Below are positions 4,767 through 45,530 of a stretch of DNA of 57,518 bases, one piece after another (position 1 is the stretch's first letter; each line of letters begins with the position of its first letter). The position numbers and the translations under genes are program-made. Origin of the DNA: a virus (Duplodnaviria > Heunggongvirae > Uroviricota > Caudoviricetes); the IMG/VR virus record IMGVR_UViG_2861048470_000006, one strand, 5' to 3'. The notes below the pieces were generated by a model that saw nothing but the letters and a program-made list of their open reading frames with translations, searched no databases and was not told the origin of the DNA.

Positions 4767-7700
4767 TCAGCTGATACTGATGCCTGCGGTGGCTTTCTTC
4801 ATCACCACAACCAGCAAATCGCTGATACTTGCTGTGGGATACCAGTCATTTACCAACCATGCTGACACCGAAAACTCCAGTGTCATGTGACCGTGACCGG
4901 CAGGCATATCAATAACACCACTGTAAATCAGCGTATTATCCAGCGCGGTACGGTTATAAATTTCAGCACCGTTTTTCCGTACTATCAGACGGCATGAGGA
5001 GTAAATATCAGTATGCTCTTTCTCATGTTTAGCGCCGCTGAATGCCACCGCCGGAATAACAATCTGCCGGTCAAACGGCTGATCGTCATAAACCCTGACG
5101 GTAATGGTTCCTGATGGCCACCGCTCCGGTGCACGGGAGTCCCGGGGGAAAGCTTTGCCCACTGTTTTAACGAGATCGCCTTCAATCTGGTTCGCGGACA
5201 GTTTTCCCAGAACCCGACAGTTCTCGTTAATCGTGACGTTGTTGAGCGTCCCGGAGTTCGCATTCACGTTACCGCTGATATCGGCATTTTTCGCCGTCAG
5301 CCGCCCGTCCGGTGTCAGGGAAAATGCCGGAGGATTACCGCCGCTGGTAATGGTCGGAGCCGTCAGGCGTTTCAGGAACACGTCGTTCATGAATATCTGA
5401 TCGCCCTGACCAACAAACATTGGTCTTGTGTTGCCATTAGACGGATCAATAAACGCGATACGGTTAGCGGCAACCAGGAACTGGCTCAGCTTGCCTTCTT
5501 CCGTGTCCTCCATGCTGAGGCCAATACCCGCGACATAATGTTTGCCGTCTTTGGTCTGCTCAATTTTGACAGCCCACATGGCATTCCACTTATCGTTGGC
5601 GTCCTTCCACTCTTTCGAAAACTCCTCCAGTCTGCTGGCGTTATCCTCCGTCAGCTCGACTTTTTCCAGCAGCTCCTTGCCGAGATGGGATTCGGTTATC
5701 TTGCCTTTGAAAAAATCCAGGTAACCTTCCGCATCATCGCTCGCCCGACCGACGGCCTCCACGAATGCCGATTTGCCAACGGTGTTCACACTGCGGATAT
5801 AAAAGTAATAATCATGGCCCGGTTTGATATTGATACTGGCGGCTATCCAGTACAGCCCCGTGCCAAGGTAGCGGGCTGTGGTTTCAACCTGCCTGATATC
5901 GGTAATCCGCGTTTCCGAGAACCAGAACTCAAACTGCACCGTCGGGTCATATACAGCCAGTTTCGGGACCGCCGTTATCTGAAAATAGCCCGGTGTCAGC
6001 TCAATCCGCGACGGCGCTGCCGGTGCGGCAATCCGGAACGATACCGACGCCGGATCGCCCTGCTGCCCCCACGCATTTACTGCCCGGACTGTCAGCCTGT
6101 AGTTCCCCAGCGCCAGTTGTGTGAAGCGGTAAGTGGTTTCCGTCGTCCGGGCCGTGCTGACCAGCCGCTCACTGCCGTCATCCGCTGCCACGGTCAGGCG
6201 AAGCATAAAGCTCACCCCCTTCACCACCTTCGGCGTGTCCCAGCGCGCCAGCACCTGATATTCCCCGCTGTCTGCGGTGACTTCGGCAGTCAGGTGCTGC
6301 ACCGCGGGCGGCGTGACACCATTCACCGTGCCGCTCTGGTCGCCGTCAAAGTGCGCCCCGTTATCCACGATGGCTTCTTTTTCCGGTACATGCTGCACGG
6401 CGGTGATGGCATACGTGCCGTCGTCGTTCTCACGGATACTCACGCAGCGGAACAGGCGCTGGCGCAGCGTCGGCAGCTTCAGCCCCCACACGCTGTATTC
6501 AGCAACGCCGTCAGGAACACGGCTCACTTTCACCTTCACGCCGTCGGTGACGGACTGAACCTCCACGCTGACCGGATTACCACTTCCGTCAACCAGGCTT
6601 ATCAGCGTGGTACCGGAGGATGGCAGCGTGATTTCACGGTCGAGCGTCAGCGTCCGGGTCTGGCTGTTCACCGCCAGCACGCGACCACCGGTGCTGATAC
6701 CGGCATAGTCATCATCGCAGATTTCAATGACATCGCCCGGTACATGGCGAAGCCCTTCAGCACCCACGCTGAAATCCACGGTCTGCGTCTCCAGCAGTTC
6801 CGTTTTAATCAGCCACAGCCCGGCGCGGTGTGCCTGCCCCCGGCTGGTACAGCCAAAGGCATCCATCTTCGTGACGTTACGACCGTAACGGGCAATGGCC
6901 TGCGTATCTTCAACAAGCTCTGTCGCCGTCTCCCAGCCGTTATCCGGGTCAATCCAGTTCACCTCAACGGCATTATGGCGGTCTTTCAGGGCGCTGAAAC
7001 TGTAGCGGAACGGCGCGCCATCATCCGGCATCACCACATTACTGCGGTTATAGGCCCACACCTTATCCGACGGTCGGTCCTGCACGAACGTCAGCGTCTG
7101 CCCGTTCCATACCGGCATACAGCGCATCGCCGAGCAGAAATCACTGAGCACATCCCACGCTTTGCGCTGTGTGGTCAGGTACGCATTACAGGTGATGCGC
7201 GGCTCCGTGCCGCCAAAGCCGTCCGGCACTGACTGGTCGCAGTACTGGCCGATGACATACAGCGCCCATTTGTCCACATCCGCCGCACCAAGACGTTTCC
7301 CCATGCCGTAGCGTGGATGGGTCAGCATATCCCACAGACACCAGGCCATGTTATTGCTGTATGCTGGCTTAAACGTTCCGTCCCAGATACCGCTGTATTG
7401 CCGAGTCTGCGGGTTATAGTTCGACGGCACCTGCAGAATACGCCCGCGCAGATGATAATTACGGCTCACCTGCTGGCTGCCGAACTGCTCCGAATCCACC
7501 TGTACGCCGACCAGTGCCGTGTTCGGGTAGCACTGTTTCACATCGATGATTTCGGTGTATGACGACCAGAGCGTTTTGTTCTGCAGCTGGTCTGTGGTGC
7601 TGTCCGGCGTCATTCTGCGCATCCGGATATTAAACGGGCGCGGCGGCAGGTTATCCACCACCACCGAGGCCAGATACTGCGAGGTGGTTTTGCCCTTAAT

Positions 7701-27103: not shown

Positions 27104-27397
27104 ATGAAAAAAATGTTGTTTTCTGCCGCTCTGGCAATGCTTATTACAGGATGTGCTCAACAGACGTTTACTGTTGGAAACAAACCGACAGCAGTAACAC
27201 CAAAGGAAACCATCACCCATCATTTCTTCGTTTCGGGAATTGGACAGGAGAAAACTGTTGATGCAGCCAAAATTTGTGGCGGCGCAGAAAATGTTGTTAA
27301 AACAGAAACCCAGCAAACATTCGTAAATGGATTTCTCGGTTTTATTACTTTAGGCATTTATACTCCGCTGGAAGCGCGTGTGTATTGCTCACAATAA
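27104..27397 (+). CDS. bor: Bor lipoprotein (serum-resistance, Iss-like)
   Basis: MKKMLFSAALAMLITGCAQQTFTV... lipobox LITGC; near-identity to lambda Bor; opposite strand to late genes as in lambda; start at ATG 27104 with AGGA RBS. Confidence 0.9.
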   Translation: MKKMLFSAALAMLITGCAQQTFTVGNKPTAVTPKETITHHFFVSGIGQEKTVDAAKICGGAENVVKTETQQTFVNGFLGFITLGIYTPLEARVYCSQ

Positions 27398-30040: not shown

Positions 30041-30115
<75 letters not shown>

Positions 30116-30118
30116 ATA

Positions 30119-30194
<76 letters not shown>

Positions 30195-30362: not shown

Positions 30363-31409
30363 TTAACGATTATTTTTTATTTCAGTTACAGTCTGATTAA
30401 ATCTCTCTTCTTCCAGTTCCACGCCAATTGCGCGACGTCCCAGTGAAAGTGCTGCTTTTATTGTTGAGCCAGACCCCATAAAAAAATCAGCGACCAAATC
30501 ACCGGGGCGACTGCTGGCAGTAATTATCTGACGCAACATATCTGCCGGTTTTTCACAGGGATGTTTGCCTGGATAATACTGCACAGGCTTGTGCGTCCAG
30601 ACATCCGTATACGGAACAGCAGCTGATACGGAAAAATAACGCCGCAGGGATTTATACTCCTCCTGCAGGCTGGCATATTGCCGGTTCAGTTCACTGTATG
30701 TGCTGACCAGCTGGTGGTGCGGCTTTTCCAGCTCCCCGCGCTGGTGTTTTTCTGCTGCAACACGCGCGAACAGCGCCTGAAGTTTTTTGTAATCAGCCTC
30801 GTTCGGCAACTGCCACTGACTGGCACCAAACCAGTGTGACGCCATGTTTTTCTTTCCGGTGGCTTCCGCTATCTGTTTTGATGTTATTCCCAGAGATTCT
30901 CGCGCATCACGAAAGTAAGAAATCAGCGGGGCCATGACGCACTGTTTAAGCTCGCGCCCCTTTGCCGCATAGCCGTCATTTTTGGGCTGGTATGGCCCCT
31001 GATAATGTTCAGCAAACAGAATGCGCTCTGTTGCCGGGAAATACGCCCGCAGGCTTTCCTTGTTGCATCCGTTCCAGCGTCCGGACGGCTTCGCCCAGAT
31101 AATGTGGTTCAGCACATTAAAGCGTTCACGCATCATGATTTCGATATCAGATGCCAGGCGATGCCCACAGAACAGGTAAAGGCTTCCGGCAGGTTTCAAC
31201 ACCCGCCAGAACTGGGCCAGACAGTGGTCCAGCCACTTAAGGTAATCTTCGTCCCCTTTCCACTGATTGTCCCAACCGTTGGGTTTCACCTTGAAGTAAG
31301 GCGGATCGGTAACAATCAGGTCAATGGAATCATCAGGCAGGGACTGAATAAAATGCAGGCAATCAGCGTTGATTAAATCAACACTGTTTATTTTTACAGT
31401 ATTTTTCAT
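30363..31409 (-). CDS. orphan DNA methyltransferase (N6-adenine/N4-cytosine class, DPPY motif)
   Basis: 348-aa ORF; motif IV DPPY near N-terminus (DLIVTDPPYF) and FxGxG SAM-binding motif near C-terminus (FFMGSGST), beta-class order; no adjacent restriction gene. Confidence 0.8.
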   Translation of the reverse strand: MKNTVKINSVDLINADCLHFIQSLPDDSIDLIVTDPPYFKVKPNGWDNQWKGDEDYLKWLDHCLAQFWRVLKPAGSLYLFCGHRLASDIEIMMRERFNVLNHIIWAKPSGRWNGCNKESLRAYFPATERILFAEHYQGPYQPKNDGYAAKGRELKQCVMAPLISYFRDARESLGITSKQIAEATGKKNMASHWFGASQWQLPNEADYKKLQALFARVAAEKHQRGELEKPHHQLVSTYSELNRQYASLQEEYKSLRRYFSVSAAVPYTDVWTHKPVQYYPGKHPCEKPADMLRQIITASSRPGDLVADFFMGSGSTIKAALSLGRRAIGVELEEERFNQTVTEIKNNR

Positions 31410-31558: not shown

Positions 31559-31777
31559 TCATTGCTGAAGACGTCTGTAACAGCCGAACTGGTAATCTGC
31601 CAGCCCCGCCATAACCAACTGGGTCAGTATTAACTGACAGCGTTCGCGTGAAAGGTATGTGTTTTGTGCAATCTCCCCGACTGTTGCCGGTTCGATGCTT
31701 AATTCATTAAAAACAACTTTCGCCGTTTCTGTCATATCTTGCTGTTTTAGCATGTCTTTTTCCCTTCTGGTTAACAT
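31559..31777 (-). CDS. small hypothetical protein, possible winged-helix DNA-binding
   Basis: 72-aa ORF upstream of methyltransferase; no motif recognised with confidence. Confidence 0.35.
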   Translation of the reverse strand: MLTRREKDMLKQQDMTETAKVVFNELSIEPATVGEIAQNTYLSRERCQLILTQLVMAGLADYQFGCYRRLQQ

Positions 31778-31875: not shown

Positions 31876-31901
31876 AAAAAAACCCGCTCGACGGCGGGTT
31901 T
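31876..31901 (-). terminator. intrinsic terminator (minus strand) at the distal edge of the 427-aa gene moron
   Basis: AAACCCGC-6 nt-GCGGGTTT stem followed on minus strand by U7; coordinates approximate. Confidence 0.45.
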
Positions 31902-32009
31902 AAGCTGTGTGGCGAAGTAACCACTCTTAACAGATTACAAGAATTTTTGCGTACGCGTTAATTTTTTTGTATTTTTCTCATTACACAACATATAAACCCT
32001 ATGTAAAAA

Positions 32010-33293
32010 ATGACAGCAGAAATAGCCGTATTTAACAAGACCGCAGTAGCTTTAGCCGCAGATTCAGCTGTAACGATTTCTGGAGGCGGCAAACATAAAA
32101 TCTATAATGGCGCTGAAAAGCTTTTCGCTCTCACTAAACATCATCCTGTAGGTTTGATGGTATATGGAACTGGTGATCTCTGCACAGCTCCATGGGAGCT
32201 TATCATTAAGGCTTATAGAAAGGATTTAGGCTCTAAATGTTTTGACTCTTTGGAGGAATATGCTGAGGATTTCTTCAATTATCTACAGTCAGCTAAATCA
32301 ATCATCACACCAGGTATGCGTGAGGCTCATCTTTATCACTTCCTGAGCGAGATTGTATTCAGCATGCTTGTTGATGCTTTTTCTGAAGGTCTCGAACCAA
32401 CATATCTCGTTAACTTCGATAAGAATCAATTTGTTACAGACCTCACGAATTATTGCAACGATCTCCTTACAAAATTATCTGATATTAATTACTTTGATGG
32501 TTTTACTCCGGATGATGAACAAGCAGCCCAAACCTATGCTTCATCAATTACCCAACGCATCATTGCTCAAAAGTTTAGTGACTTTGATTCAATATCCATA
32601 ACTCCACAGTTGACAAAAGCAGTTAGTGATGTATTGGCAGCTATGATATGCAAGCAAAGTGATATTGGTTCCGTCTCTGGGATTGTGATTGCAGGTTATG
32701 GCGATAAAGACTATTACCCTAAAGTATTATCATATGAAGTTTGTGGCTTCTTTAATGATAAAATAAGGAAAACCACAGATGCTGACAAGTGCTGCATCAC
32801 TCCTAATTGCGGCGTGACTCCCTTTGCGCAAGAGGATGAAGTTTCTGCTTTCATGCAAGGAGCTAGTTCACATCTTATCCAAAATCTTCATGCTGAGTAT
32901 CAACGTTCTATCGGCGATTTACTTGATGGTATTGATTCAGTAATCACAGATTTGGTGCCCACTTCAGATATCGAAGGAGCCAAGGATGCTATAGTTGATG
33001 TAGTGCGCAGAACTGTTTCCGATTGCAAGGGGCGAATTGATAGCTTTGTCCGAGAAAACTATGTTGACAAAGTCGTAAATATGATCGAGTTTTTACCCAA
33101 GCAAGATTTAGCTTATATGGCTGAATCATTAGTAAATTTAACCGCTTTCAAGCGCAAGGTCTCCGATGATACTGAAACAGTGGGAGGCCCCATAGATGTT
33201 GCAATCATTTCTAAAGCTGATGGTTTTATCTGGGTTAAACGTAAGCACTATTTTGCAAAAGAACTGAACCATCACTACTTTTCACGGTCATAG
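32010..33293 (+). CDS. 427-aa protein with N-terminal HslV/proteasome-beta-like Ntn-hydrolase region (Thr2) and uncharacterised C-terminal half
   Basis: N-terminus MTAEIAVFNKTAVALAADSAVT aligns position-for-position with HslV [21 protein letters not shown] as recalled; GxGD-like segment GLMVYGTGDL; lower GC than flanks; opposite strand to phage late genes. Confidence 0.5.
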   Translation: MTAEIAVFNKTAVALAADSAVTISGGGKHKIYNGAEKLFALTKHHPVGLMVYGTGDLCTAPWELIIKAYRKDLGSKCFDSLEEYAEDFFNYLQSAKSIITPGMREAHLYHFLSEIVFSMLVDAFSEGLEPTYLVNFDKNQFVTDLTNYCNDLLTKLSDINYFDGFTPDDEQAAQTYASSITQRIIAQKFSDFDSISITPQLTKAVSDVLAAMICKQSDIGSVSGIVIAGYGDKDYYPKVLSYEVCGFFNDKIRKTTDADKCCITPNCGVTPFAQEDEVSAFMQGASSHLIQNLHAEYQRSIGDLLDGIDSVITDLVPTSDIEGAKDAIVDVVRRTVSDCKGRIDSFVRENYVDKVVNMIEFLPKQDLAYMAESLVNLTAFKRKVSDDTETVGGPIDVAIISKADGFIWVKRKHYFAKELNHHYFSRS

Positions 33294-33316
33294 CAACAAA
33301 TAGACAAGGGGAACAC

Positions 33317-33466
33317 ATGTCACTTAAGCAAGCCTATGAAAGAACTCAACCCAAAAGCATCAATGATTTCTTTCAGTTGAGTACTTCTGGAAAGAGTCGA
33401 CGTACTGTAACAAGCCAATCTAACTTCTTTACTAAATTGAACAAAACATTACCTGCACAATCCTAA
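33317..33466 (+). CDS. candidate 49-aa ORF co-oriented with the 427-aa gene
   Basis: hand-translated (MSLKQAYERTQPKSINDFFQLSTSGKSRRTVTSQSNFFTKLNKTLPAQS); AAGGGG RBS 6 nt upstream; 23 bp after 427-aa stop. Confidence 0.3.
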   Translation: MSLKQAYERTQPKSINDFFQLSTSGKSRRTVTSQSNFFTKLNKTLPAQS

Positions 33467-33472
33467 AATGCT

Positions 33473-33494
33473 AAAAGCCACTACGGTGGCTTTT
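33473..33494. terminator. bidirectional hairpin terminator between convergent Q gene and 427-aa cassette
   Basis: AAAAGCCAC-tacg-GTGGCTTTT with T-rich flanks on both strands. Confidence 0.5.
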
Positions 33495-33499
33495 AGCTT

Positions 33500-33862
33500 T
33501 TATTTACATGCAATAACGCTCGTAATACCCTCTACAAAACCAATTGCAGTTTGTAATTCCTTTCTAATCGTGCCATCTGAACACCTTCTCTTTTTGGCAA
33601 TAGTGCGTAATGAGATACCAATAACAAAGTGGGCTATGATGAGCTCATATTCCTCTGGTTTATACCTTCTCAACCGAGCCACACAACTGTCTATCATAAT
33701 GCCTTCGTCATCATCACACTGAATCCGTGACTTTTTACCATGAGGTAAAAGCCCCTTGAAGCCCGCTGCTATCGGTTGCCAATCGACACCACTATTTTCT
33801 GCTGCAGCCCATGCCCCCCAGCGGTCTAAAACCTCATACATATCACGCCCCATTACTATCAC
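33500..33862 (-). CDS. late antiterminator Q (phage-82/QuuD type)
   Basis: motifs LDRWGAWAA...IAAGFKGL...CSDG match QuuD-type Q as recalled; probable start at internal ATG (33853). Confidence 0.7.
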   Translation of the reverse strand: MIVMGRDMYEVLDRWGAWAAAENSGVDWQPIAAGFKGLLPHGKKSRIQCDDDEGIMIDSCVARLRRYKPEEYELIIAHFVIGISLRTIAKKRRCSDGTIRKELQTAIGFVEGITSVIACK

Positions 33863-35719: not shown

Positions 35720-35875
35720 TTACTCCTCAGGTTCGTAAGCTGTGAAGACAGCGACCTCCGTCTGGCCGGTTCGGATTCGTACCTCGCAGAGGTCTTTCCT
35801 CGTTACCAGTGCCGTCACTATGACGGTTAAACAGATGACGATCAGGGCGATTAACATCGCCTTTTGCTGCTTCAT
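35720..35875 (-). CDS. hokD: Hok-family type I toxin
   Basis: 51-aa product MKQQKAMLIALIVICLTVIVTALVTRKDLCEVRIRTGQTEVAVFTAYEPEE matches Hok/RelF as recalled; track ORF extends upstream in frame. Confidence 0.9.
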   Translation of the reverse strand: MKQQKAMLIALIVICLTVIVTALVTRKDLCEVRIRTGQTEVAVFTAYEPEE

Positions 35876-36086
35876 AGCCTGCTTCTCCTTGCCTTTCGGC
35901 ACGTAAGAGGCTAACCTAGATTTGCCGTTCATAGATTGAGCCTCAGATTAATGTTAAGCGTCTTGCAGGACGCGTAATGTTAACTGGGGCTTTTCTCTAT
36001 CTGCCTTTGGTGTTCATGCCTGAGACAGATAGCCTCAAGCACCCGCAGCCATTCTACTTAACTCCCGTTACCTCGCCAATATAAAA

Positions 36087-36176
36087 TCAATCAGAAAGGC
36101 GATCCATAAGAACAACAGCAAGACAATAAATTGCCATTACAGCTGCAATAGCCAGCGCACATTTGAGAACCAGCAC
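36087..36176 (-). CDS. candidate 29-aa hydrophobic peptide (VLVLKCALAIAAVMAIYCLAVVLMDRLSD), GTG start
   Basis: hand-found; AGGAGG 5 nt upstream of GTG; different frame from the Cys-rich 72-aa track ORF. Confidence 0.3.
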   Translation of the reverse strand: MLVLKCALAIAAVMAIYCLAVVLMDRLSD

Positions 36177-36381
36177 GACAACCTCCTGTATTGGACGTAC
36201 ACCAGTCCTGATAAATATGAGGCTGTCTCATCATTGATGAGATACAACTATTGGGTATAGTTTCTGTGATTTTGTTCTGTAGAAATGGAACACAACAACC
36301 AGTCACCACCAGTACTTCTTTAAATACGCCAAGTCCGACGCAAGCTAACCTTCTAGTCCGCTTTGAGCGAGAAGCGGAAGT

Positions 36382-36648
36382 ATGAAACTTGTTCTCACCA
36401 CCGATGAAGCATTACAAACAATGCAGTTAGTTTATCAACGGGCAGGATCAGGGCGTACTCTCAAGCGGTTTAAGATTGATAACCTCAGGTACATTCATCT
36501 TGCCACGTTTCATATAGCGTATTTGCGACAGAGTTCATGTGAAGAAACACCGACTACGAGGATGATATTCATGTTGTATTGTTCGGGAAATCACTTCTTC
36601 ATATGGAACCCTCATCACACTTACAAAACCATTATTAACATAGCTTAA
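36382..36648 (+). CDS. hypothetical protein
   Basis: 88-aa track ORF, no recognisable motif. Confidence 0.25.
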   Translation: MKLVLTTDEALQTMQLVYQRAGSGRTLKRFKIDNLRYIHLATFHIAYLRQSSCEETPTTRMIFMLYCSGNHFFIWNPHHTYKTIINIA

Positions 36649-36888
36649 GTGTTAATCAAAATTGAGCCATTCACATTACATTAGGTAAGGTATCTTACTA
36701 AAAATATTGTAATGTTTTGTTTTTAAAGATAAAGATTTCAGGTTGAAAACCAAAAATTTTTAGTTAAAAATATTTATGGTGTATGTAAAAAATGATAAGG
36801 TAGTGATAAGACATAAGTTTGTAAAACACATGTTAAATTTCAATGCTGATGAAAAAGCTTAGCGTTAATCAAAACAGGAGCAAGAAGA

Positions 36889-37719
36889 TTGAAAGTTATT
36901 AGCTTAATCAATATGAAAGGTGGCGTTGGTAAGTCAACATTGGCTACCAATATTGCTAATCATCTTTCAGATAAACTTGGGCAAAAAATATTATTAATAG
37001 ATATCGACCCACAATTTAACGCAACGCAATGTGTAATGGATACAAGCAAATATGTTGCACATATGAAAAGCGGAGGCGATAGCATATGTGATATTTTTTA
37101 TAGTTCAAAAATTCGACTATCTACAATGACTGGTCCTTTAGTTAACACACCTAAAGAATTAGCCGATATAACACCAATTCAATTAAATGATAATTTTCAC
37201 ATTGTTCCCGGAAGCCTTGGGCTATATAAAATTGAAATGAAACCAGGAGAAGGGATAGAAAACAAGCTTAGACGCTTTCTTAAAATCCATGAAAATGACT
37301 ATGATTATGTCATAATTGATACCCCACCAACCCCATCAGTTTGGATGTCCAGCGCATTAATTGCATCTGATTATTACCTCATTCCAGCCAAACCCGATCC
37401 TCTTTCGATCACTGGTATCGATCTATTAGATAGCATTATAAATGAGAAGAGAGAAAATTTCGATCTTAAGATTGAATGTGCGGGCATAGTTTTTAATATG
37501 GTTGAAGGTAATAGTAATTTATATGAGGAAAGTCTTCGTTACTTCAATAATCAAAAACGTTGGCGTAATAAGATCTTTAAATCATATTTGAGCAAACGTA
37601 CTGAGTTGGCAAGAAATCAAACAAGAGGCTTATTTATTAACAATTTAACGGATGAGGATATGAAGTTTTCGCTGTCTAAAATTACTGACGAACTTCTCTC
37701 TAGAGTAGGTGACTTATGA
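36889..37719 (+). CDS. ParA/MinD/Soj-family P-loop ATPase
   Basis: 276-aa ORF, TTG start with AGGAG RBS; deviant Walker A KGGVGKST, DIDPQ and Walker B-like VIIDTPP motifs; very AT-rich. Confidence 0.8.
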   Translation: MKVISLINMKGGVGKSTLATNIANHLSDKLGQKILLIDIDPQFNATQCVMDTSKYVAHMKSGGDSICDIFYSSKIRLSTMTGPLVNTPKELADITPIQLNDNFHIVPGSLGLYKIEMKPGEGIENKLRRFLKIHENDYDYVIIDTPPTPSVWMSSALIASDYYLIPAKPDPLSITGIDLLDSIINEKRENFDLKIECAGIVFNMVEGNSNLYEESLRYFNNQKRWRNKIFKSYLSKRTELARNQTRGLFINNLTDEDMKFSLSKITDELLSRVGDL

Positions 37720-38222
37720 CTGACAAAAAAAATAACTCAAAAGAAATTAAGCAACTGTTAAACTTTTTAGAGGAGTTTTCCTTTATTTCAAAAAAATTAT
37801 CAAGAATCAACTTTATTGAATTACTTCAAGATAGTTATACTGATAATTTAGAAGTTAACGAAAGAAATTCAAAGTCCAAAAAAAATGATATTAAAGGTTT
37901 CCTTGTTGGGTATCTTCCGAGGATTTTATTAGACAAAGATCTCTTCCAAAAAAATAAAGATATAGATGATTTTGCACGCATGTTAGGTATCGAAATCAGC
38001 AGGCCTGAAAAAAGATCTAGAGAGGAAATGATCGGCATAATCGTGTGTGACGTTCACGAGAAAAACTCATCCGATTTAGGTAAGGCTTATAATATTATCA
38101 ATTCAATGTCAAATAACCCTCTAGTTTTGAGTAGAATAAAAGAGAGGAAGAACCTTTCTAGCGCTCAAAATGAGATATATGACTGGAATGAAGTTATAAA
38201 AGATATATTCAATAAGGACTAA
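37716..38222 (+). CDS. hypothetical protein, second gene of ParA-like operon
   Basis: 168-aa ORF overlapping ParA stop by 4 nt (ATGA); Lys/Asn-rich; no motif recognised. Confidence 0.5.
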   Translation: MTDKKNNSKEIKQLLNFLEEFSFISKKLSRINFIELLQDSYTDNLEVNERNSKSKKNDIKGFLVGYLPRILLDKDLFQKNKDIDDFARMLGIEISRPEKRSREEMIGIIVCDVHEKNSSDLGKAYNIINSMSNNPLVLSRIKERKNLSSAQNEIYDWNEVIKDIFNKD

Positions 38223-38224
38223 CA

Positions 38225-38920
38225 ATGTCGAGAGAAGTAAACAGCGATTTCACTGAGTTAGTTACTTATTTCTCTGAATATAAATTAAAAAATGTTTTCG
38301 AGAATATTAACTCAAGAGGGAAAATAAGCATGATACATAAGAGATATTATTCTTTTATGTGCCTTGTTTACTGTTTGTATCATTTCTCCAAGGAGAAAAT
38401 AGACGCCAACTCATTGGAGCGATTGCAAGAAGCTTCATCTGACCTTGGTACAGCTATGTTTATGGTTATAAATGGTGCATACAAACCAGCAAATCTAATG
38501 ATGCGAAGTTATATTGAAAATTCTTTAAAATCAATCGGTTGCTTACTAGATCCTTCAATACTTGAAGAAAAATCATTGTTTAAGGTAATTGAACAAACTG
38601 GGGAACATCCTGTCTTCAAAAAAAATCCTCTACTACATGAAACTTTAAAAGCTGAATACTCTTCGTTATGCAGTCACGTACATACAGCTACTGTAAAAGA
38701 AATGGCTCACATAAAAGCTTTAAATGTTTTTCCCGAAATAGACTTGGTTAAAATAGATAATATTTCGAAGGTGATTGATAAGGTGGTTAAGACTATGATA
38801 TCAACTATCATAAGAATTTTTCCTGATGTTTTCTTTTCCTTTGCACCTGAGTATCGAGAAAAAATCCTCCTTAGCTTAACCTCTGCACAACGAGCCTCAC
38901 TTCATTCCTTAAGTGATTAA
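38225..38920 (+). CDS. hypothetical protein, third gene of ParA-like operon
   Basis: 231-aa ORF 2 nt after previous stop; no motif recognised. Confidence 0.5.
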   Translation: MSREVNSDFTELVTYFSEYKLKNVFENINSRGKISMIHKRYYSFMCLVYCLYHFSKEKIDANSLERLQEASSDLGTAMFMVINGAYKPANLMMRSYIENSLKSIGCLLDPSILEEKSLFKVIEQTGEHPVFKKNPLLHETLKAEYSSLCSHVHTATVKEMAHIKALNVFPEIDLVKIDNISKVIDKVVKTMISTIIRIFPDVFFSFAPEYREKILLSLTSAQRASLHSLSD

Positions 38921-38933
38921 CTAACAAGTATGA

Positions 38934-38966
38934 CATAAAAACTATCCTATTGTGATAGTTTTTATG
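38934..38966 (+). terminator. 13-bp-stem hairpin directly after the three-gene operon (putative terminator)
   Basis: CATAAAAACTATC-ctattgt-GATAGTTTTTATG; coordinates anchored to stop at 38918-38920. Confidence 0.4.
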
Positions 38967-39116
38967 TTCATTAAGATGACTATATCAGGAATTATTGCCG
39001 AATTTTAATTTTCATATTGATTTTACTATCTCTCACCAACTCTTGTAAGTATCCTTCCGCCACAAGCGGACCATGTGCATTTAAATATCTGACCTAACGT
39101 GCCGTAACGCCGCAAT

Positions 39117-39140
39117 GTCCGCTTCTGGCACAAAGCAGAC
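39117..39140 (+). repeat. 24-bp imperfect direct repeat, copy A (GTCCGCTTCTGGCACAAAGCAGAC)
   Basis: 20/24 identity with copy B at 42790-42813; internal dyad symmetry GTCCGC...GCAGAC. Confidence 0.4.
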
Positions 39141-39202
39141 GCCCACTCTCACGCGAATGCTTTGCCCTTGACTTGCCAACAACCGTATCGCTTGCTCCGC
39201 AA

Positions 39203-40495
39203 CTATGGTTTTTTATTAGAATCTTCGCCACTAAATAAATTATAATAAATTGATTTTATTAGATATCTGTCAGAATCTATATGGTCAGCACGAGTAGCAT
39301 GCTCTAATGTTTCAAATGCTAGGGTTTGTGCGGCTTCAGCAAAAATTCCAGGCCAACCCTTACTCAGCATCGACAGTCCTTTAAGGATCCTTATCTGAAT
39401 TTCCCTCATACTGGCACCATCGCGCGCAACAGGTGAGAAAAAGTCTTCAAGTAGATCGTTATTCTGAAGTGGTGCAACATGTACAGAAGGATATTTCACT
39501 TCTATTTCATCAGATTTATTCTGCGCGTAAGCGGAAAGTATACGTACACCTCTGCCAATGACATCAATGGCGGTTCCAGGATCGTTCACTGCGGGGGAAA
39601 GGGCTCGGCAGGCTATTTCGGCCATGACGCTAAGACAAAATCGGGGGTCCTGAGCAAATGAACGTACATCCGAGACAATAATCGTCTCAAGTAAATCGGT
39701 GCTGATTGATGACTCCTGGCCCTGACTCAGGTACAAAACTGGCGTGGACGGATGTATGAAACTGCCCGGCTGCGCCACGAGGTATACATGACGGGGATCA
39801 TTGGTCAGCAGCTTGCTGAGTTTCACCATATCAACATATTCAACATAGCCAATCTTTTTCGGATAAACTGCAACCGTTCCTTTCGGCTGTTCATTGTTCT
39901 CAAGCCATGGATATCCGCCGAGACAGGGATTTCTTGCTCTCGCAATAAATGTTTCGATGGCCGCCTGTTCTACTTTTGCCGTTGTCTCACCAACCCTCCC
40001 CAGAGAGGTCAAATGCTGTATCCAGCGAAGCAATGTGATGAGGATTAAGGCAATGACAACCAGTGTTACAATGAATAAAATGACTCTCCCCCTTTCTCCA
40101 TAAGCTCCCATATTGAGGGCAATAATCCCTACCAGACTGAAGAGAAAAGAACCGATGAAGGTGGCCAGTACATTTTGTGTGGTGACGTCTTCAACAACTA
40201 AACGAGTAGCTCTGGGAGTCACATTAGTAGTGGCTGAACCGTAGGCTGTGACCATGATGCTCAGCGAAAATGTGGTCACTGCCAGCATACTCGATGCCAG
40301 TATGTTCAGAATGTTATCGACTGCTTCCGCACCAACCTTCACGGAAACCGACTCAGGTATCATTGATTTAAAAAGAATTGATAAAAGGGCCGTTATTATT
40401 GCGACAATTGCGAATAACGTTGCCCTGAACCATAGTTTTTTAAATGTCTGCTTCAGCATCCATTTCCAGCGTGAAATCATTCTGCATTCCCTCAT
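39203..40495 (-). CDS. DUF2254-like multi-TM membrane protein
   Basis: 430-aa ORF with N-terminal TM helices and large soluble C-terminal domain; family from recollection. Confidence 0.5.
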   Translation of the reverse strand: MRECRMISRWKWMLKQTFKKLWFRATLFAIVAIITALLSILFKSMIPESVSVKVGAEAVDNILNILASSMLAVTTFSLSIMVTAYGSATTNVTPRATRLVVEDVTTQNVLATFIGSFLFSLVGIIALNMGAYGERGRVILFIVTLVVIALILITLLRWIQHLTSLGRVGETTAKVEQAAIETFIARARNPCLGGYPWLENNEQPKGTVAVYPKKIGYVEYVDMVKLSKLLTNDPRHVYLVAQPGSFIHPSTPVLYLSQGQESSISTDLLETIIVSDVRSFAQDPRFCLSVMAEIACRALSPAVNDPGTAIDVIGRGVRILSAYAQNKSDEIEVKYPSVHVAPLQNNDLLEDFFSPVARDGASMREIQIRILKGLSMLSKGWPGIFAEAAQTLAFETLEHATRADHIDSDRYLIKSIYYNLFSGEDSNKKP

Positions 40496-40543
40496 ATTGC
40501 AGCCGGGATAAATAAATGCCGCCTCTGTGGCGGCATGTTGCTG

Positions 40544-42547
40544 TTAACGAACCAGATGCAGGAAGTGCAGGTGTTTTTCGTACTGGTCCAGTATGTCATT
40601 AATCAGCTGTTCCTGATTCCAGCCCATTACATCATAATTTTGGCCGCCCTCTTTGAGATAGACTTCAGCGCGATAATATCGATGTTGTTCACTCTGCTGC
40701 TCATCATTATCCAGCGCAGCGAGCGCGAAGGTCGGTGAGTTATACCCGCGAAGCCTCACTTCATATATATAATTCAGCTCGTTGCCCAAATCGACTTCAA
40801 GGCGAATACGATCCTCGGCGGCGTCACTGATGTGGCTTATCGTTCCCTGCTTGTTAAGTTCCTCCTGAACCAGCGTCATGGCGGGTTGGATAATGTCGTC
40901 CATAAAACGTTTCACAAGAGAGCGCTTCGGCAAATACGCGATATTGCGTAACCTTCTCTGCCAGGGAATTGGGTTACGTGCAGCCGTAGGAGCAATAGTC
41001 GCCATGCTAAGGCTTTCACGCTTGGTCAAATCCCGACGCAGGGCTTTTAACAGTCCGTATATGGATATTAATAAGATAACTGAGAAGGGCAATGCACTCG
41101 CTATCGTTACGGTTTGCAACGCACTCAGCCCCCCTGCGATCAGCAGGGCAATAGCAACAACGCCCATGAGCAATGCCCAGAAAATTCGCTGCCAGACGGG
41201 CGTGTTTGCCACCCCACCTGATGCCAGAGTATCCACAACCATTGCCCCCGAATCAGCAGACGTTACAAAGAAGACGATGACCATCGCCATTGCAATGAAT
41301 GACAGCACGGAAGAGAACGGGAAATGCTCCAGGAAATTAAACAGGGCAAGCGCAACATCCTGCTGAACGGTATTGGCGAGGTCAGTGGCGCCCTGGTTCA
41401 TGATGAGATAGATGGCGCTGTTTCCAAACACCGTCATCCACATGAGCGTAAAGCCGGCGGGAACAAACAACACGCCAGTCACGAACTCACGAATTGTCCT
41501 GCCGCGGGAAACGCGTGCAATGAACATACCTACAAACGGCGACCATGAAAGCCACCATCCCCAGTATAATAATGTCCAGCCCCCCAGCCAGTTGCTCGAC
41601 TTGGGTTCATACGCGTAAAGGTTGAACGTTTTACTCACCAGTTCCGACAGATAACCACCCGTATTTTCCACAAATGACTTCAGCAGAAGCACAGTGGGAC
41701 CCAGGCACAAGACCAGCGCCAGGAGCAACACCGCCAGGCCCAGATTAAGCTCAGACAGGATGCGTATTCCCTTGTCCAGGCCGGACACCACCGAAATCGT
41801 CGCTAACCCCGTGATGACCACGATCAAAATGACCTGTACCGTTTCATTGATGGGCACGCCGAAAAGATGGTTCAAACCGGCATTCACCTGCAATACACCG
41901 TAACCCAGCGATGTTGCAACGCCAAAGACAGTGCCTATCACGGCGAAGATATCAACCGCGTGGCCTATAGGCCCGTAAATGCGATCGCCGATAATGGGAT
42001 AGAGCGCAGAACGCAGCGTTAAAGGCAGACCGTGACGGTAACTGAAAAAGGCCAGAATCAGCGCCACGATGGCATAAATTGCCCATGCGTGCAGACCCCA
42101 GTGGAAGAACGTCAGGCGCATGGCTTCCTTCGCTGCCGCAACGGTCTCTGGAGTGCCGACAGGTGGCGAAAGATAATGCATCACAGGTTCGGCAACGCCA
42201 AAGAACATCAGGCCGATCCCCATCCCTGCCGAAAAAAGCATCGCGAACCAGGAGTGGTAGCTGAAATCAGGCTGCGCATGGTCTGGGCCCAGCTTTATAT
42301 CACCGTAACGTGAGAGTCCAAGGAACGTGACGCTCAGTAAAATCAGGGCCACAGCAAGTATGTAGAACCAGCTGGCATTCGTGAAGATTTGTTGCTGAAG
42401 TAGTTTAAAATTTTTGTCGGCGACATCCGGGAATACGGCGGCAAAGGCGACAAGAAGGAAAATTAGCAAAGCAGATGTAAAGAATACCGCTTTGTTAACC
42501 TGGCTTGTAGACTTCTTTGGGGTTGTATCATTTTCACTCATAATCAT
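40544..42547 (-). CDS. BCCT-family transporter (BetT/BetU-like choline/betaine transporter)
   Basis: 667-aa ORF; conserved BCCT segments (GDIKLGP, WTLLYWGWWLSWSPFVGMFIARVSRGRTIREF) parallel E. coli BetT as recalled. Confidence 0.85.
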   Translation of the reverse strand: MIMSENDTTPKKSTSQVNKAVFFTSALLIFLLVAFAAVFPDVADKNFKLLQQQIFTNASWFYILAVALILLSVTFLGLSRYGDIKLGPDHAQPDFSYHSWFAMLFSAGMGIGLMFFGVAEPVMHYLSPPVGTPETVAAAKEAMRLTFFHWGLHAWAIYAIVALILAFFSYRHGLPLTLRSALYPIIGDRIYGPIGHAVDIFAVIGTVFGVATSLGYGVLQVNAGLNHLFGVPINETVQVILIVVITGLATISVVSGLDKGIRILSELNLGLAVLLLALVLCLGPTVLLLKSFVENTGGYLSELVSKTFNLYAYEPKSSNWLGGWTLLYWGWWLSWSPFVGMFIARVSRGRTIREFVTGVLFVPAGFTLMWMTVFGNSAIYLIMNQGATDLANTVQQDVALALFNFLEHFPFSSVLSFIAMAMVIVFFVTSADSGAMVVDTLASGGVANTPVWQRIFWALLMGVVAIALLIAGGLSALQTVTIASALPFSVILLISIYGLLKALRRDLTKRESLSMATIAPTAARNPIPWQRRLRNIAYLPKRSLVKRFMDDIIQPAMTLVQEELNKQGTISHISDAAEDRIRLEVDLGNELNYIYEVRLRGYNSPTFALAALDNDEQQSEQHRYYRAEVYLKEGGQNYDVMGWNQEQLINDILDQYEKHLHFLHLVR

Positions 42548-42789
42548 TTATTCCATTAATTAAATCCGCACTGGATAGAAGGTACTACCTCTCACAGAGT
42601 AGCAAAGTTCAACTGGCTATGCGGGATTAATCGGAATGCATGGTGGAATGAGTGCCGATACAAATCATCCTATATTCTAAGGAGTTTTAAGTTACTCAGC
42701 CTGCCAATTACTGGGGCATTTAATTTGTATGATCTGTATCAAAGCTGGGATATAAGTTAAGTGAAGTATATTAGGCACGAATTACCAGC

Positions 42790-42813
42790 GTCTGCTCTTG
42801 GCACAAAGCGGAC
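42790..42813 (+). repeat. 24-bp imperfect direct repeat, copy B (GTCTGCTCTTGGCACAAAGCGGAC), abutting IS3
   Basis: see copy A; last 3 nt GAC are the IS3 target duplication. Confidence 0.4.
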
Positions 42814-42878
42814 TGATCTTACCCAGCAATAGTGGACACGCGGCTAAGTGAGTAAACTCTCAGTCAGAGGTGACTCAC

Positions 42879-43125
42879 ATGACAAAAACAGTATCAACCA
42901 GTAAAAAACCCCGTAAACAGCATTCGCCTGAATTTCGCAGTGAAGCCCTGAAGCTTGCTGAACGCATCGGTGTTACTGCCGCAGCCCGTGAACTCAGCCT
43001 GTATGAATCACAGCTCTACAACTGGCGCAGTAAACAGCAAAATCAGCAGACGTCTTCTGAACGTGAACTGGAGATGTCTACCGAGATTGCACGTCTCAAA
43101 CGCCAGCTGGCAGAACGGGATGAAG
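42879..43125 (+). pseudogene. insE: IS3 orfA (insE) 5' portion, interrupted by nested ISEc8-like element; remaining orfA codons resume at 45568
   Basis: MTKTVSTSKKPRKQHSPEFRSEALKLAERIGVTAAARELSLYESQLYNWRSKQQ... reads through to RDE then hits the IS end; continuation [17 protein letters not shown] found after the nested element. Confidence 0.85.
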
Positions 43126-43196
43126 GTAAGCGTACAGCCTGAACCGTCTGGTCAGAATCTGACAAATTAGACAAAGTGGTGTCCACCAAATAAGTA

Positions 43197-43598
43197 GTGG
43201 GAACCAAAGTGTCAGATATGCAGAAAAATGTGACTCCCGGCAGGCGAAAAGGCTGCCCTAATTATCCTCCCGAATTTAAACAGCAGCTCGTTGCTGCCTC
43301 CTGTGAACCCGGGATATCCATCTCAAAACTTGCTCTTGAAAATGGCATTAACGCCAATCTGTTGTTCAAATGGCGACAACAATGGCGCGAGGGAAAGCTG
43401 CTATTACCTTCTTCAGAGAGCCCCCAGCTACTTCCTGTGACTCTCGATGCAGCTGCCGAACAGCCAGAATCGCTCGCAGAGGACCCGGAAACCCTCAGTA
43501 TCAGCTGTGAGGTAACGTTCCGGCACGGGACGCTCCGCTTCAATGGCAATGTCAGCGAAAAGCTCCTGACTCTGCTGATACAGGAACTGAAGCGATGA
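43197..43598 (+). CDS. IS66-family OrfA
   Basis: 133-aa ORF. Confidence 0.85.
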   Translation: MGTKVSDMQKNVTPGRRKGCPNYPPEFKQQLVAASCEPGISISKLALENGINANLLFKWRQQWREGKLLLPSSESPQLLPVTLDAAAEQPESLAEDPETLSISCEVTFRHGTLRFNGNVSEKLLTLLIQELKR

Positions 43599-43942
43599 TC
43601 CCGTTACCTTCCGGGACCAAAATTTGGCTGGTTGCCGGTATCACCGATATGAGAAATGGCTTCAACGGCCTGGCTGCGAAAGTACAAACGGCGCTGAAAG
43701 ACGATCCCATGTCCGGCCATGTTTTCATTTTCCGGGGCCGCAGCGGCAGTCAGGTTAAACTGCTGTGGTCCACCGGTGACGGACTGTGCCTCCTGACCAA
43801 ACGGCTGGAGCGTGGGCGCTTCGCCTGGCCGTCAGCCCGTGATGGCAAAGTGTTCCTTACGCAGGCGCAGCTGGCGATGCTGCTGGAAGGTATCGACTGG
43901 CGACAGCCCAAGCGGTTGCTGACCTCCCTGACCATGCTGTAA
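43595..43942 (+). CDS. IS66-family OrfB (TnpB-like)
   Basis: 115-aa ORF, 4-nt overlap with orfA. Confidence 0.85.
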
Positions 43943-43991
43943 ATCTCTTTATCCTGGTTGTCACAGAATAAGCCCGGTAAAATACGGGCTT

Positions 43992-45530
43992 ATGAACGAC
44001 ATCTCTTCTGACGACATCTTCCTGCTGAAACAGCGCCTGGCCGAACAGGAAGCGCTGATCCACGCCCTGCAGGAAAAGCTGAGCAACCGGGAGCGCGAAA
44101 TAGACCATCTGCAGGCGCAGCTGGATAAACTCCGCCGGATGAACTTCGGCAGTCGTTCCGAAAAAGTCTCCCGCCGTATCGCACAAATGGAAGCCGATCT
44201 GAACCGGCTTCAGAAAGAGAGCGATACGCTGACTGGTAGGGTGTATGACCCGGCTGTACAGCGTCCGTTGCGTCAGACCCGCACCCGTAAGCCGTTCCCT
44301 GAATCACTACCCCGTGACGAAAAGCGACTGTTGCCTGCGGCGCCGTGCTGCCCGAACTGCGGCGGTTCACTGAGCTATCTGGGCGAGGATACCGCCGAAC
44401 AGCTGGAGTTGATGCGTAGTGCCTTCCGGGTTATCCGGACGGTACGGGAAAAACATGCCTGTACTCAGTGCGATGCCATCGTGCAGGCACCTGCACCTTC
44501 GCGGCCCATCGAGCGGGGTATCGCCGGACCGGGGCTGCTGGCCCGCGTGCTGACCTCGAAGTATGCAGAGCACACCCCGCTGTATCGCCAGTCAGAAATA
44601 TACGGCCGGCAAGGTGTGGAGCTGAGCCGTTCACTGCTGTCGGGCTGGGTGGATGCATGCTGCCGGCTGCTGTCTCCGCTGGAAGAGGCGCTTCATGGCT
44701 ATGTCATGACTGACGGCAAACTCCATGCCGATGATACCCCGGTCCAGGTACTGCTGCCGGGTAATAAGAAGACGAAGACCGGGCGGTTGTGGGCGTATGT
44801 TCGTGATGACCGCAATGCCGGGTCAGCGTTGGCACCTGCAGTGTGGTTCGCTTACAGCCCGGACAGAAAAGGCATCCATCCGCAGACTCATCTTGCCTGC
44901 TTCAGCGGTGTGCTGCAAGCGGATGCGTACGCCGGGTTCAACGAGCTGTATCGCAATGGTGGGATAACGGAAGCTGCCTGCTGGGCTCATGCCCGCCGAA
45001 AGATCCACGATGTGCACGTCCGCATCCCGTCAGCACTGACGGAAGAAGCCCTGGAGCAGATCGGTCAGTTGTACGCCATAGAGGCGGATATAAGGGGAAT
45101 GCCGGCAGAGCAGCGGCTTGCTGAACGTCAGCGAAAAACGAAACCGCTGTTGAAATCCCTGGAAAGCTGGTTGCGTGAAAAGATGAAAACCCTGTCGCGA
45201 CACTCAGAACTGGCGAAAGCGTTCGCATACGCCCTGAACCAGTGGCCGGCGCTGACGTACTATGCAGATGATGGCTGGGCTGAGGCGGACAATAACATCG
45301 CTGAAAATGCGTTGCGGATGGTCAGTCTGGGCCGCAAAAACTACCTGTTCTTCGGTTCGGATCATGGAGGAGAGCGGGGAGCGCTGCTGTACAGCCTGAT
45401 CGGGACGTGCAAACTGAACGGAGTGGAGCCAGAAAGCTACCTCCGCTATGTCCTTGACGTCATAGCCGACTGGTCGATAAACCGGGTCGGCGAACTGCTC
45501 CCCTGGCGCGTAGCACTGCCGACTGAATAA
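43992..45530 (+). CDS. IS66-family transposase OrfC
   Basis: 512-aa ORF. Confidence 0.9.

Follow-up and report, generated by a model that had tools for sequence, protein, structure and literature searches.

What does a prophage do with a proteasome-type enzyme? Proteasome-family enzymes are central to regulated proteolysis. Apart from the 20S proteasome, HslV, and connectase, for most prokaryotic families of proteasome homologues in the 2021 catalogue neither a function nor a partner or context is known. An enzyme from what is seemingly the largest of these orphan families is encoded on a 57,518-nucleotide viral stretch, IMG/VR record IMGVR_UViG_2861048470_000006, which we refer to as the window. 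The host element appears to be a defective lambda-like Escherichia coli prophage, cryptic and apparently truncated on its early side, and the enzyme gene lies with a second, very small gene in a cassette beside the gene for antiterminator Q. An earlier sequence-only reading had placed a proteasome-type N-terminal nucleophile (Ntn) hydrolase in a phage accessory cassette at this locus. That core idea is correct; its account of the domain architecture and of the terminators needs correction.

We find that the cassette is an AT-rich accessory module of two genes, acquired horizontally and inserted in the antisense direction into a lambdoid prophage, with the Q gene on one side and the putative late promoter and terminator on the other. 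We are highly confident that, taken jointly, the enzyme has a proteasome fold and the two genes form a unit. The best explanation, to which we assign a probability of about 0.5, is that the proteasome-type enzyme and its cognate microprotein constitute a conflict module of the exclusion or abortive-infection type, expressed in the lysogen. The cassette and the adjoining Q gene comprise the following features.

31977..32009, plus strand: cassette-specific leader, from alignment with phages 1720a-02 and Stx2a_1447 and from reading the sequence
32010..33293, plus strand: enzyme gene, an open reading frame (ORF) of 427 amino acids (aa) for a proteasome-fold enzyme with an N-terminal threonine; core strands at residues 4-53, 223-271, and 395-412, helical insertions at about 101-214 and 287-360
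33306..33312, plus strand: Shine-Dalgarno-like AAGGGGA, read from the sequence, 4 nt ahead of the microprotein ATG
33317..33466, plus strand: microprotein gene, an ORF of 49 aa whose product is basic and mostly disordered, starting 23 bp past the enzyme stop codon
33470..33497, plus strand: intrinsic terminator of the cassette, from a terminator scan and folding, with a stem of 12 bp and TTTTATTT behind it, directly next to the Q stop codon
33500..33862, minus strand: antiterminator gene Q (PF06530, E value of 1.3e-43, and annotated by PGAP), convergent with the cassette

The two ORFs, the 23-bp gap between them, and the Shine-Dalgarno sequence of the smaller one are as the sequence-only reading had described them. 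Both ORFs lie between Q and the late region and are antisense to the latter. The GC content of the cassette is 36 to 42%, versus 48 to 56% in the flanks, and homology to the cassette-free phage 1720a-02 fades between about 31960 and about 31977. The cassette thus has the marks of a phage accessory cassette, or moron: relative to related phages it is a separate inserted block, its composition is atypical, the slot it fills is variably occupied, and it has a terminator, and presumably a promoter, of its own. This supports the earlier view of a self-contained accessory unit transcribed against the late genes. The leader carries TATAAA (31991-31996), a possible -10 element of the presumed promoter; on reading the leader we saw no Shine-Dalgarno sequence ahead of the enzyme ATG. 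A RefSeq record that is 100% identical comes from E. coli 602354, a human stool isolate, where the large ORF is annotated as a "hypothetical protein" and the small ORF is uncalled. When the cassette and its junctions were scanned with Rfam, the only match was SNORD20, below threshold and attributable to chance.

Fold and active site of the enzyme

The 427-aa product begins MTAEIAVFNKTAVALAADSAVT. A TAA codon stands in frame two codons 5' of the ATG at 32010, which fixes the start and makes Thr residue 2, directly after the initiator Met. The start codon likewise immediately precedes Thr in all 111 de-replicated homologues that we compared, which come from many bacterial phyla and several archaeal lineages. 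Four residues, T2, D18, S19, and K37, are invariant across these 111 sequences, and G48, the equivalent of Gly47 of the oxyanion hole, is Gly in 102, Ala in 8, and Ser in 1.

The HMMER alignment to the proteasome beta subunit of Thermoplasma acidophilum is in register and places D18 on Glu17. The segment NGAEKLF pairs with NGKKLF, so that K37-L-F falls on K33-L-F and K37 is the equivalent of Lys33. GGPIDVAiISKxDGF pairs with GGMIDVAVITRKDGY, with GGPIDVA on the GGMIDVA of the beta subunit, and the proteasome-like N-terminal register is far beyond chance. At the Asp166 site, the GG motif is preceded by E389 (conserved in 102 of 111), and the position of Ser129, in the Gly-Ser-Gly loop, is occupied by an invariant A273-Q274. 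The HslV/proteasome-like N terminus with Thr after Met, first noticed by eye, is therefore borne out by the in-frame TAA, the invariance of T2, and the in-register alignment, and the anticipated conservation of Thr2 and of the Lys33 equivalent across homologues was found without exception. Judged by these residues, the enzyme is a predicted catalytically competent Ntn hydrolase of the proteasome superfamily, made without a propeptide, in which Thr would become residue 1 upon removal of Met.

Structure prediction agrees. An AlphaFold2 model built with 34 homologues as input had a mean predicted local distance difference test score (pLDDT) of 83.5 and a predicted template modeling score (pTM) of 0.78. 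Foldseek matched this model to T. acidophilum proteasome beta with a probability of 1.0, as expected from the Ntn-hydrolase fold that had been proposed, and the top match of a fold search in BFVD was a phage "proteasome beta." The elements of the model run in the order strands 4-53, helices 62-214, strands 223-271, helices 275-385, and strands 395-412, forming an alpha-beta-beta-alpha sandwich in which strands and helices succeed one another as in proteasome subunits. As modeled, the enzyme is one proteasome fold in which both helix pairs are greatly expanded into helical insertions. Conservation follows this division: column identity among the 111 homologues is lowest in the insertions (24 to 37%) and reaches 80 to 84% at the two ends of the protein.

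This architecture replaces the view that the C-terminal ~230 aa belong to no recognizable family. Those residues complete the fold, contributing strands 223-271 and 395-412 and helix H4 (364-385), and what remains unmatched are the insertions at about 101-214 and about 287-360. By eye, only the N-terminal ~60 residues are recognizable and the middle is poorly conserved, which could suggest an Ntn domain resembling HslV with an unrelated domain of ~230 aa attached at the C terminus. The AlphaFold2 model and the HMMER register rule this out, as the C-terminal residues complete the proteasome fold, and we regard a domain fusion as hardly credible.

The linked microprotein gene

To define the gene neighborhood, we collected 160 loci from genomes and viral contigs plus 8 from exact-protein look-ups, which left 109 usable loci after de-replication at 80% identity. 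A small ORF was scored if it encoded 30 to 90 aa on the enzyme strand and started between -30 and +40 bp of the enzyme stop codon. Such an ORF, of 34 to 90 aa, follows the enzyme gene in 105 of the 109 loci, from E. coli to methanogens, versus 37 to 43% at control positions; starts range from -29 to +34 bp, with frequent overlap of the two genes. The co-occurrence that the sequence-only reading had asked about is thus a general property of the family. Within +40 bp of the stop codon, we saw no small ORF in two Vibrio loci (L018 and L019) and one from Planctomycetaceae (L067), where the partner may be shorter, more distant, or absent; these loci could be informative as natural orphans.

The small ORFs fall into several sequence classes, and each class is tied to the enzyme gene. 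We searched hidden Markov models (HMMs) of the classes against all 15,961 ORFs of 25 to 100 aa in the collected loci. A model built from 16 small ORFs of distant lineages gave 39 significant matches, all 39 at the junction (two were flagged "elsewhere" owing to the choice of another frame by the longest-ORF rule). The gamma-proteobacterial class, LELREWQKxFNPSK...FSW, gave 12 significant matches and the class MSLQQVVxNAYK gave 6, every one at the junction. For the class found in the window, MxLKQ[AS][YF]xRxQPKSxxDFF...NFFTxL, the count was 7 of 7, one of them flagged "elsewhere" because of a longer upstream start. What the classes have in common is position, size, a basic and hydrophilic character, and a loose motif of the form aromatic-xxx-hydrophobic-x-Pro-[KSE].

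Compared with relatives whose enzyme is 86% identical, the window microprotein has a pN (nonsynonymous differences per site) of 0.13 and a pS (synonymous) of 0.78, a pN/pS ratio of about 0.17. Its nonsynonymous divergence (dN) is ~2.5 times that of the enzyme. On these rates, the 49-aa ORF reads as a real gene under purifying selection. It is rarely annotated: among 5.8 billion database proteins, it appears as a called gene in no more than five clusters, and the locus tag of one of these adjoins that of the enzyme. The AlphaFold2 model of the microprotein has a short helix at residues 3 to 10, over the conserved motif, and the remainder is disordered.

The conserved unit ends with these two genes. 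No third conserved gene was found among the neighbors, the largest neighbor family (10 of 110 loci) being Q itself, and the neighbor-family survey contained no AAA+ ATPase or other conserved gene. Several other ideas about the microprotein were tried and set aside. Apparent natural fusions of enzyme and microprotein among longer homologues proved to be mis-called upstream starts. The precursor of a ribosomally synthesized and posttranslationally modified peptide was rejected because no conserved modification or export genes lie nearby, and a C-terminal docking motif of the HbYX type was rejected because the C termini are inconsistent across classes.

Many gamma-proteobacterial microproteins (e.g., L014, L125, L129, L131 to L133, and L136) do finish in hydrophobic or aromatic residues, such as FSW, FCW, FNW, FTW, FSL, and FTI. 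Such endings are reminiscent of the C-terminal tails with which activators dock on the proteasome and HslV; in the window class, the corresponding NFFTKL is internal and is followed by ~10 residues.

The cargo slot and the distribution of the pair

To place the cassette in its prophage, we compared it with related lambdoid phages. The features on its left side are as follows.

31880..31901, minus strand: left backbone hairpin, putative tR' of the late operon, from a terminator scan; its T-run is on the late strand
31921..31976, minus strand: backbone element recognized by conservation, with putative pR' and putative Q-binding palindrome GCGTACGC (31949-31956)
31961-31956, minus strand: TTAACG, -35 element of the putative pR'
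31939-31934, minus strand: TGTAAT, -10 element of the putative pR'
31928-31923, minus strand: pause-like AAGAGT of the putative pR'

The hairpin on the right folds with -22.4 kcal/mol (z of -7.4) on the plus strand and with -20.6 kcal/mol on the minus strand, where the U-tract is weak. The strong stem and the T-tract on the plus strand identify it as the cassette's own terminator; it may also terminate weakly on the minus strand. The left hairpin is common to Ayreon (where it is annotated "terminator"), PhiR40_1, cdtI, 1720a-02, and Stx2a_1447, and together with ~75 bp beyond it belongs to a backbone common to phages with other cargo or none. The cassette had been described as bracketed by a pair of hairpins insulating it on the late strand. 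Both hairpins exist, but the pair does not work that way: the right one is the plus-strand terminator of the cassette, and the left one is backbone that a cassette-free phage also carries.

The ~55-bp element next to the left hairpin is conserved in all 10 module-bearing lambdoid prophages (enzymes 45 to 100% identical), with an invariant TTTTGCGTACGCGT, and in the cassette-free phage 1720a-02 it directly abuts the Q stop codon. Its palindrome tracks the Q allele and not the cargo, reading GCGTACGC with window-type Q and GCGGACCGC with Q of the cdtI and 1720a-02 type. The Q proteins of cdtI and 1720a-02 are 73% identical, and each is 50 to 55% identical to that of the window. By analogy with lambda, we infer that positions 31961-31921 on the minus strand are pR', with the Q-binding element (qut) between -35 and -10, followed by the pause-like AAGAGT and then the tR' hairpin. 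Under this assignment, the late promoter and terminator would lie on one side of the cassette and Q on the other, so that the cassette would be outside the late transcript and would not be insulated by the left hairpin. The comparison with the position where Stx phages carry stx is only approximate: the cassette lies between the Q stop codon and the element and terminator that abut Q in 1720a-02.

Other phages use the same Q-to-terminator slot for unrelated plus-strand cargo, each with its own hairpin beside Q: cdtI (L004, 2733-4121), PhiR40_1 (L003, 2725-3171), and Stx2a_1447 (L174, 1682-3148). The slot is a hotspot for cargo antisense to the late genes. In megablast searches, the 3' half of the window Q allele (33500-33800) was found only in nine cassette-bearing genomes, while the 5' part of Q and rusA matched thousands, which points to a mosaic junction inside Q. 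The cassette may travel with its Q segment. For the same reason, cassette-free genomes with this Q allele offered no usable right insertion boundary, the 3' half of Q occurring only with the cassette.

Several other features of the prophage were recorded. The first gene past the putative tR' encodes a 72-aa ORF (31559-31777, minus strand; 64 aa in the PGAP annotation; phrog_331, unknown function) that is conserved with a methylase in many lambdoid phages and has weak winged-helix similarity to DprA_WH, TrmB, and MarR (E values of 0.005 to 0.03). The late leader region carries tRNA-Gly(TCC) and tRNA-Thr(TGT) (30041-30194, minus strand) and an N6/N4 DNA methylase gene (30363-31409, minus strand), and past the lysis genes lies a gene for a serum-survival lipoprotein of the iss/bor type (~27104-27397, plus strand). 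Past hokD (window ~35720-45500; L001, 15921-25701), ParA with two hypothetical genes, DUF2254, a BCCT transporter, and IS66 stand in place of phage replication and immunity genes.

The full cassette is rare. Of 5,426 complete E. coli genomes, 9 carry it, and it is absent from a set of 50,697 phage records. The family to which its enzyme belongs is large: 6,005 clusters at 50% identity at an E value of ≤1e-3, or 3,343 at ≤1e-30, with uniform lengths of 417 to 457 aa. The spread is patchy and pan-prokaryotic, archaea included. Among lambdoid prophages, variants of the module range from 100% down to 45% identity and carry two microprotein classes, and all are convergent to one Q family (78 to 100% identical). 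On viral contigs generally, the flanking genes are mostly Q (8 to 9), helix-turn-helix and S24 CI-type repressors (7 to 10), CII, holins, and lysozymes.

Cellular genomes show a related pattern. In Alteromonas, the pair stands at the end of a small island that also encodes an integrase and a primase of the P4-alpha-like kind; in Vibrio, an integrase flanks it on one side and a type I restriction-modification system on the other. Across ~40 diverse genomes, the two genes on each side of the pair include N6_Mtase, Eco57I, ResIII, restriction-modification systems of types I, IIG, and IV, Fic/SoFic, Zeta toxin, integrases, transposases, and CI repressors. The linked microprotein and the mobile-element context appear to be previously undescribed, and the enzyme family itself has probably been catalogued already, without a function.

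Proposed role, alternatives, and relation to known systems

A catalogued family without a function, a universally linked microprotein, and a mobile-element context together make the pair a well-founded candidate for a new two-gene conflict system. The nucleophile would be exposed from synthesis, once Met is removed, and there is no conserved ATPase or other partner, so control should come from elsewhere; the cotranslated microprotein is the obvious candidate ligand. We infer from this that the two products interact, that the genes are expressed in the lysogen, and that the protease serves defense or addiction. In the mechanism we propose, the microprotein would be the cognate ligand of the enzyme, most likely a labile inhibitor or gate comparable to an antitoxin, or else its first substrate. 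Loss or cleavage of the microprotein upon phage infection or stress would release the threonine-protease activity on cellular or phage proteins. The biological role would most likely be inter-element conflict, in the form of phage exclusion, abortive infection, or addiction. Considered on its own, a defense or conflict role stands at even odds or slightly below. That the pair is an unrecognized immune or conflict system of pan-prokaryotic reach, spanning bacteria, archaea, prophages, and satellites, with a threonine protease gated by or directed at a co-evolving microprotein, is a more tentative proposal.

Several results weigh against this interpretation. PADLOC-DB 2.0.0 contained no family matching the enzyme or the microprotein at an E value of ≤1, and literature searches for a functional study of proteasome-like defense or prophage systems, for papers citing PMC8665760, and for accession WP_000123148 found none. 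The association with defense genes is qualitative only. A consensus scan found no promoter for the cassette, so lysogenic expression is deduced from its orientation and its own terminator. Between microprotein classes, homology was not significant (hhalign P of 0.07 to 0.8), and the notion of a single partner family consequently depends on position, size, and the short shared motif; 3 to 4 of the 109 loci have no detectable small ORF. Finally, Pfam gave no match for the enzyme at an E value of ≤1, including the proteasome model PF00227, and profile searches of PDB sequences yielded marginal proteasome matches only, whether the whole protein or a version lacking the insertions was used (top match 1pma_B, E values of 0.095 to 1). 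As the sequence similarity is marginal, homology to the proteasome rests on the fold and the register of the motifs. A Pfam scan of the microprotein and NCBIfam scans of both proteins likewise returned nothing, and PHROGs matched the enzyme to phrog_5990 alone, of "unknown function."

The alternatives differ mainly in what they make of the microprotein and of the genomic sites. In a pure addiction module, the enzyme would be a proteolytic toxin and the microprotein an unstable antitoxin, together stabilizing the mobile element with no anti-phage role. The compact and often overlapping operon, the small, basic, disordered second gene, carriage on mobile elements, and neighbors such as Zeta toxin, Fic, and YdaT would all fit such a toxin-antitoxin pair. 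However, the microprotein has no DNA-binding domain of the kind typical of type II antitoxins, the few loci without a detectable small ORF retain the enzyme, and the prophage slots are those typical of exclusion genes; the two roles are also mutually compatible. We consider addiction alone unlikely. Equally unlikely, in our judgment, is a sequence-specific peptidase or ligase resembling connectase, for which the microprotein would be a dedicated substrate, recognized by the motif around the invariant Pro; the enzyme would cut it or attach it to a target, giving a tag or a matured peptide. The enzyme does not show the structural signatures of connectase, namely a loss of H1/H2 and an insertion at S3/S4, the microprotein ends in neither Gly-Gly nor another known tag terminus, no conserved ligase, target, or transporter gene lies nearby, and conservation of the motif across microprotein classes is weak.

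Two further readings make the surroundings incidental or put them to another use, and both are very improbable. A housekeeping or stress protease for proteostasis, in the manner of HslV, BPH, or Anbu, that entered a prophage by chance would account for the proteasome fold and the active site that appears intact, and Fuchs et al. suggested that some homologues may act without dedicated partners (PMC8665760). Against this stand the presence of the cassette in so few E. coli genomes and its patchiness across phyla, as well as its sites in prophages, satellites, and islands, its foreign base composition, and the lack of an AAA+ neighbor. A lysogenic-conversion or virulence factor of enterotoxigenic E. 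coli (ETEC), acting on host or host-cell proteins, would be in keeping with the origin of the carrier genomes, 8 of 9 being from human-origin isolates and at least 2 from named ETEC (ETEC-2265 and TW10722). The region between Q and the lysis genes also classically carries toxins such as Stx, and the same slot in cdtI holds other, uncharacterized cargo. Yet there is no signal peptide or secretion gene, and homologues, close as well as distant, come from bacteria of marine, soil, and groundwater habitats and from archaea, both methanogenic and anaerobic methanotrophic (ANME). The lysogen-expressed exclusion or abortive-infection module remains the explanation that we prefer.

Among known systems, the enzyme shares with HslV (ClpQ) of HslUV the superfamily and the identity of a bacterial Thr1 protease whose Thr directly follows Met. 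HslV, however, is a ~175-aa subunit free of insertions, with the AAA+ partner HslU adjacent or co-occurring, and the window enzyme has neither property. It also departs from the 20S proteasome beta subunit and Anbu: it has 427 aa versus ~200 aa, owing to ~245 aa of helical insertions, it has no alpha subunit, and its Ser129 loop is replaced by the invariant Ala-Gln. Connectase (the MJ0548 family) offers a functional likeness: it has the proteasome fold and, through a short motif, acts on a single specific partner. Its example indicates that the proteasome fold can serve as a dedicated peptidase or ligase and not as a bulk protease. Connectase has lost H1/H2 and has a two-helix S3/S4 lid, whereas in the window enzyme H1/H2 are present and expanded, and strands 21-24 and 29-32 follow each other without an insertion.

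The genetic setting resembles that of prophage exclusion genes in regulatory slots, such as lambda rexAB beside cI, and of two-gene toxin-antitoxin and abortive-infection pairs. Like these, the cassette has a terminator of its own, is transcribed against or independently of the lytic operons, and neighbors CI or Q; its slot is fixed but the cargo varies, and the second gene of the compact two-gene operon is small. In sequence and profile, the pair is unrelated to any catalogued system (PADLOC being negative), and the literature that we searched describes no defense or toxin-antitoxin system whose effector is a threonine hydrolase of the proteasome type.

The closest precedent is in the survey of Fuchs, Alva, and Lupas (2021), who reported 22 new families of proteasome homologues (PMC8665760). 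Two of these, PMI-3 and PMI-4, have long insertions after H1/H2 and between H3 and H4, and PMI-4 is the largest such family, with members in most bacterial phyla, Euryarchaeota, and phages (PMC8665760). The window enzyme has both insertions, at about 101-214 and 287-360, and its family is probably PMI-4, judging from architecture, family size, and taxonomic spread matched to the published description of the group represented by HDY66466.1. The sequence-only reading had found the protein not assignable to a described system; this holds for PADLOC, Pfam, and NCBIfam, all negative, but the insertion pattern of PMI-3 and PMI-4 was already catalogued, without a function or partner gene (PMC8665760). 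The PMI insertions are located at the contact sites of rings and double rings (PMC8665760), and by the argument made there, a classical barrel is doubtful for the window enzyme.

Like PMI-4, the window family has a proteasome-like core with Thr1, Asp17, and Lys33, both insertions, no propeptide, a broad but patchy spread in bacteria, Euryarchaeota, and phages, and no assigned function. At 6,005 clusters at 50% identity, it is much larger than the set of 501 nr90 sequences listed in PMC8665760. The same survey noted no genomic context or co-occurrence pattern that hinted at function (PMC8665760), whereas the window family has a conserved microprotein partner and recurrent sites in mobile elements and accessory slots. 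With this partner, and with the two genes traveling together through prophage slots, satellites, and islands of restriction-modification genes, the function of the family can for the first time be framed as a testable hypothesis, and E. coli offers a tractable model. If a role in defense or addiction proves true, the pair would bring a new effector class, a threonine protease, and a novel mode of regulation, the gating of a propeptide-less enzyme by a microprotein. Such a mechanism would have no counterpart among described defense and toxin-antitoxin systems and would be a new biological role for the proteasome fold.

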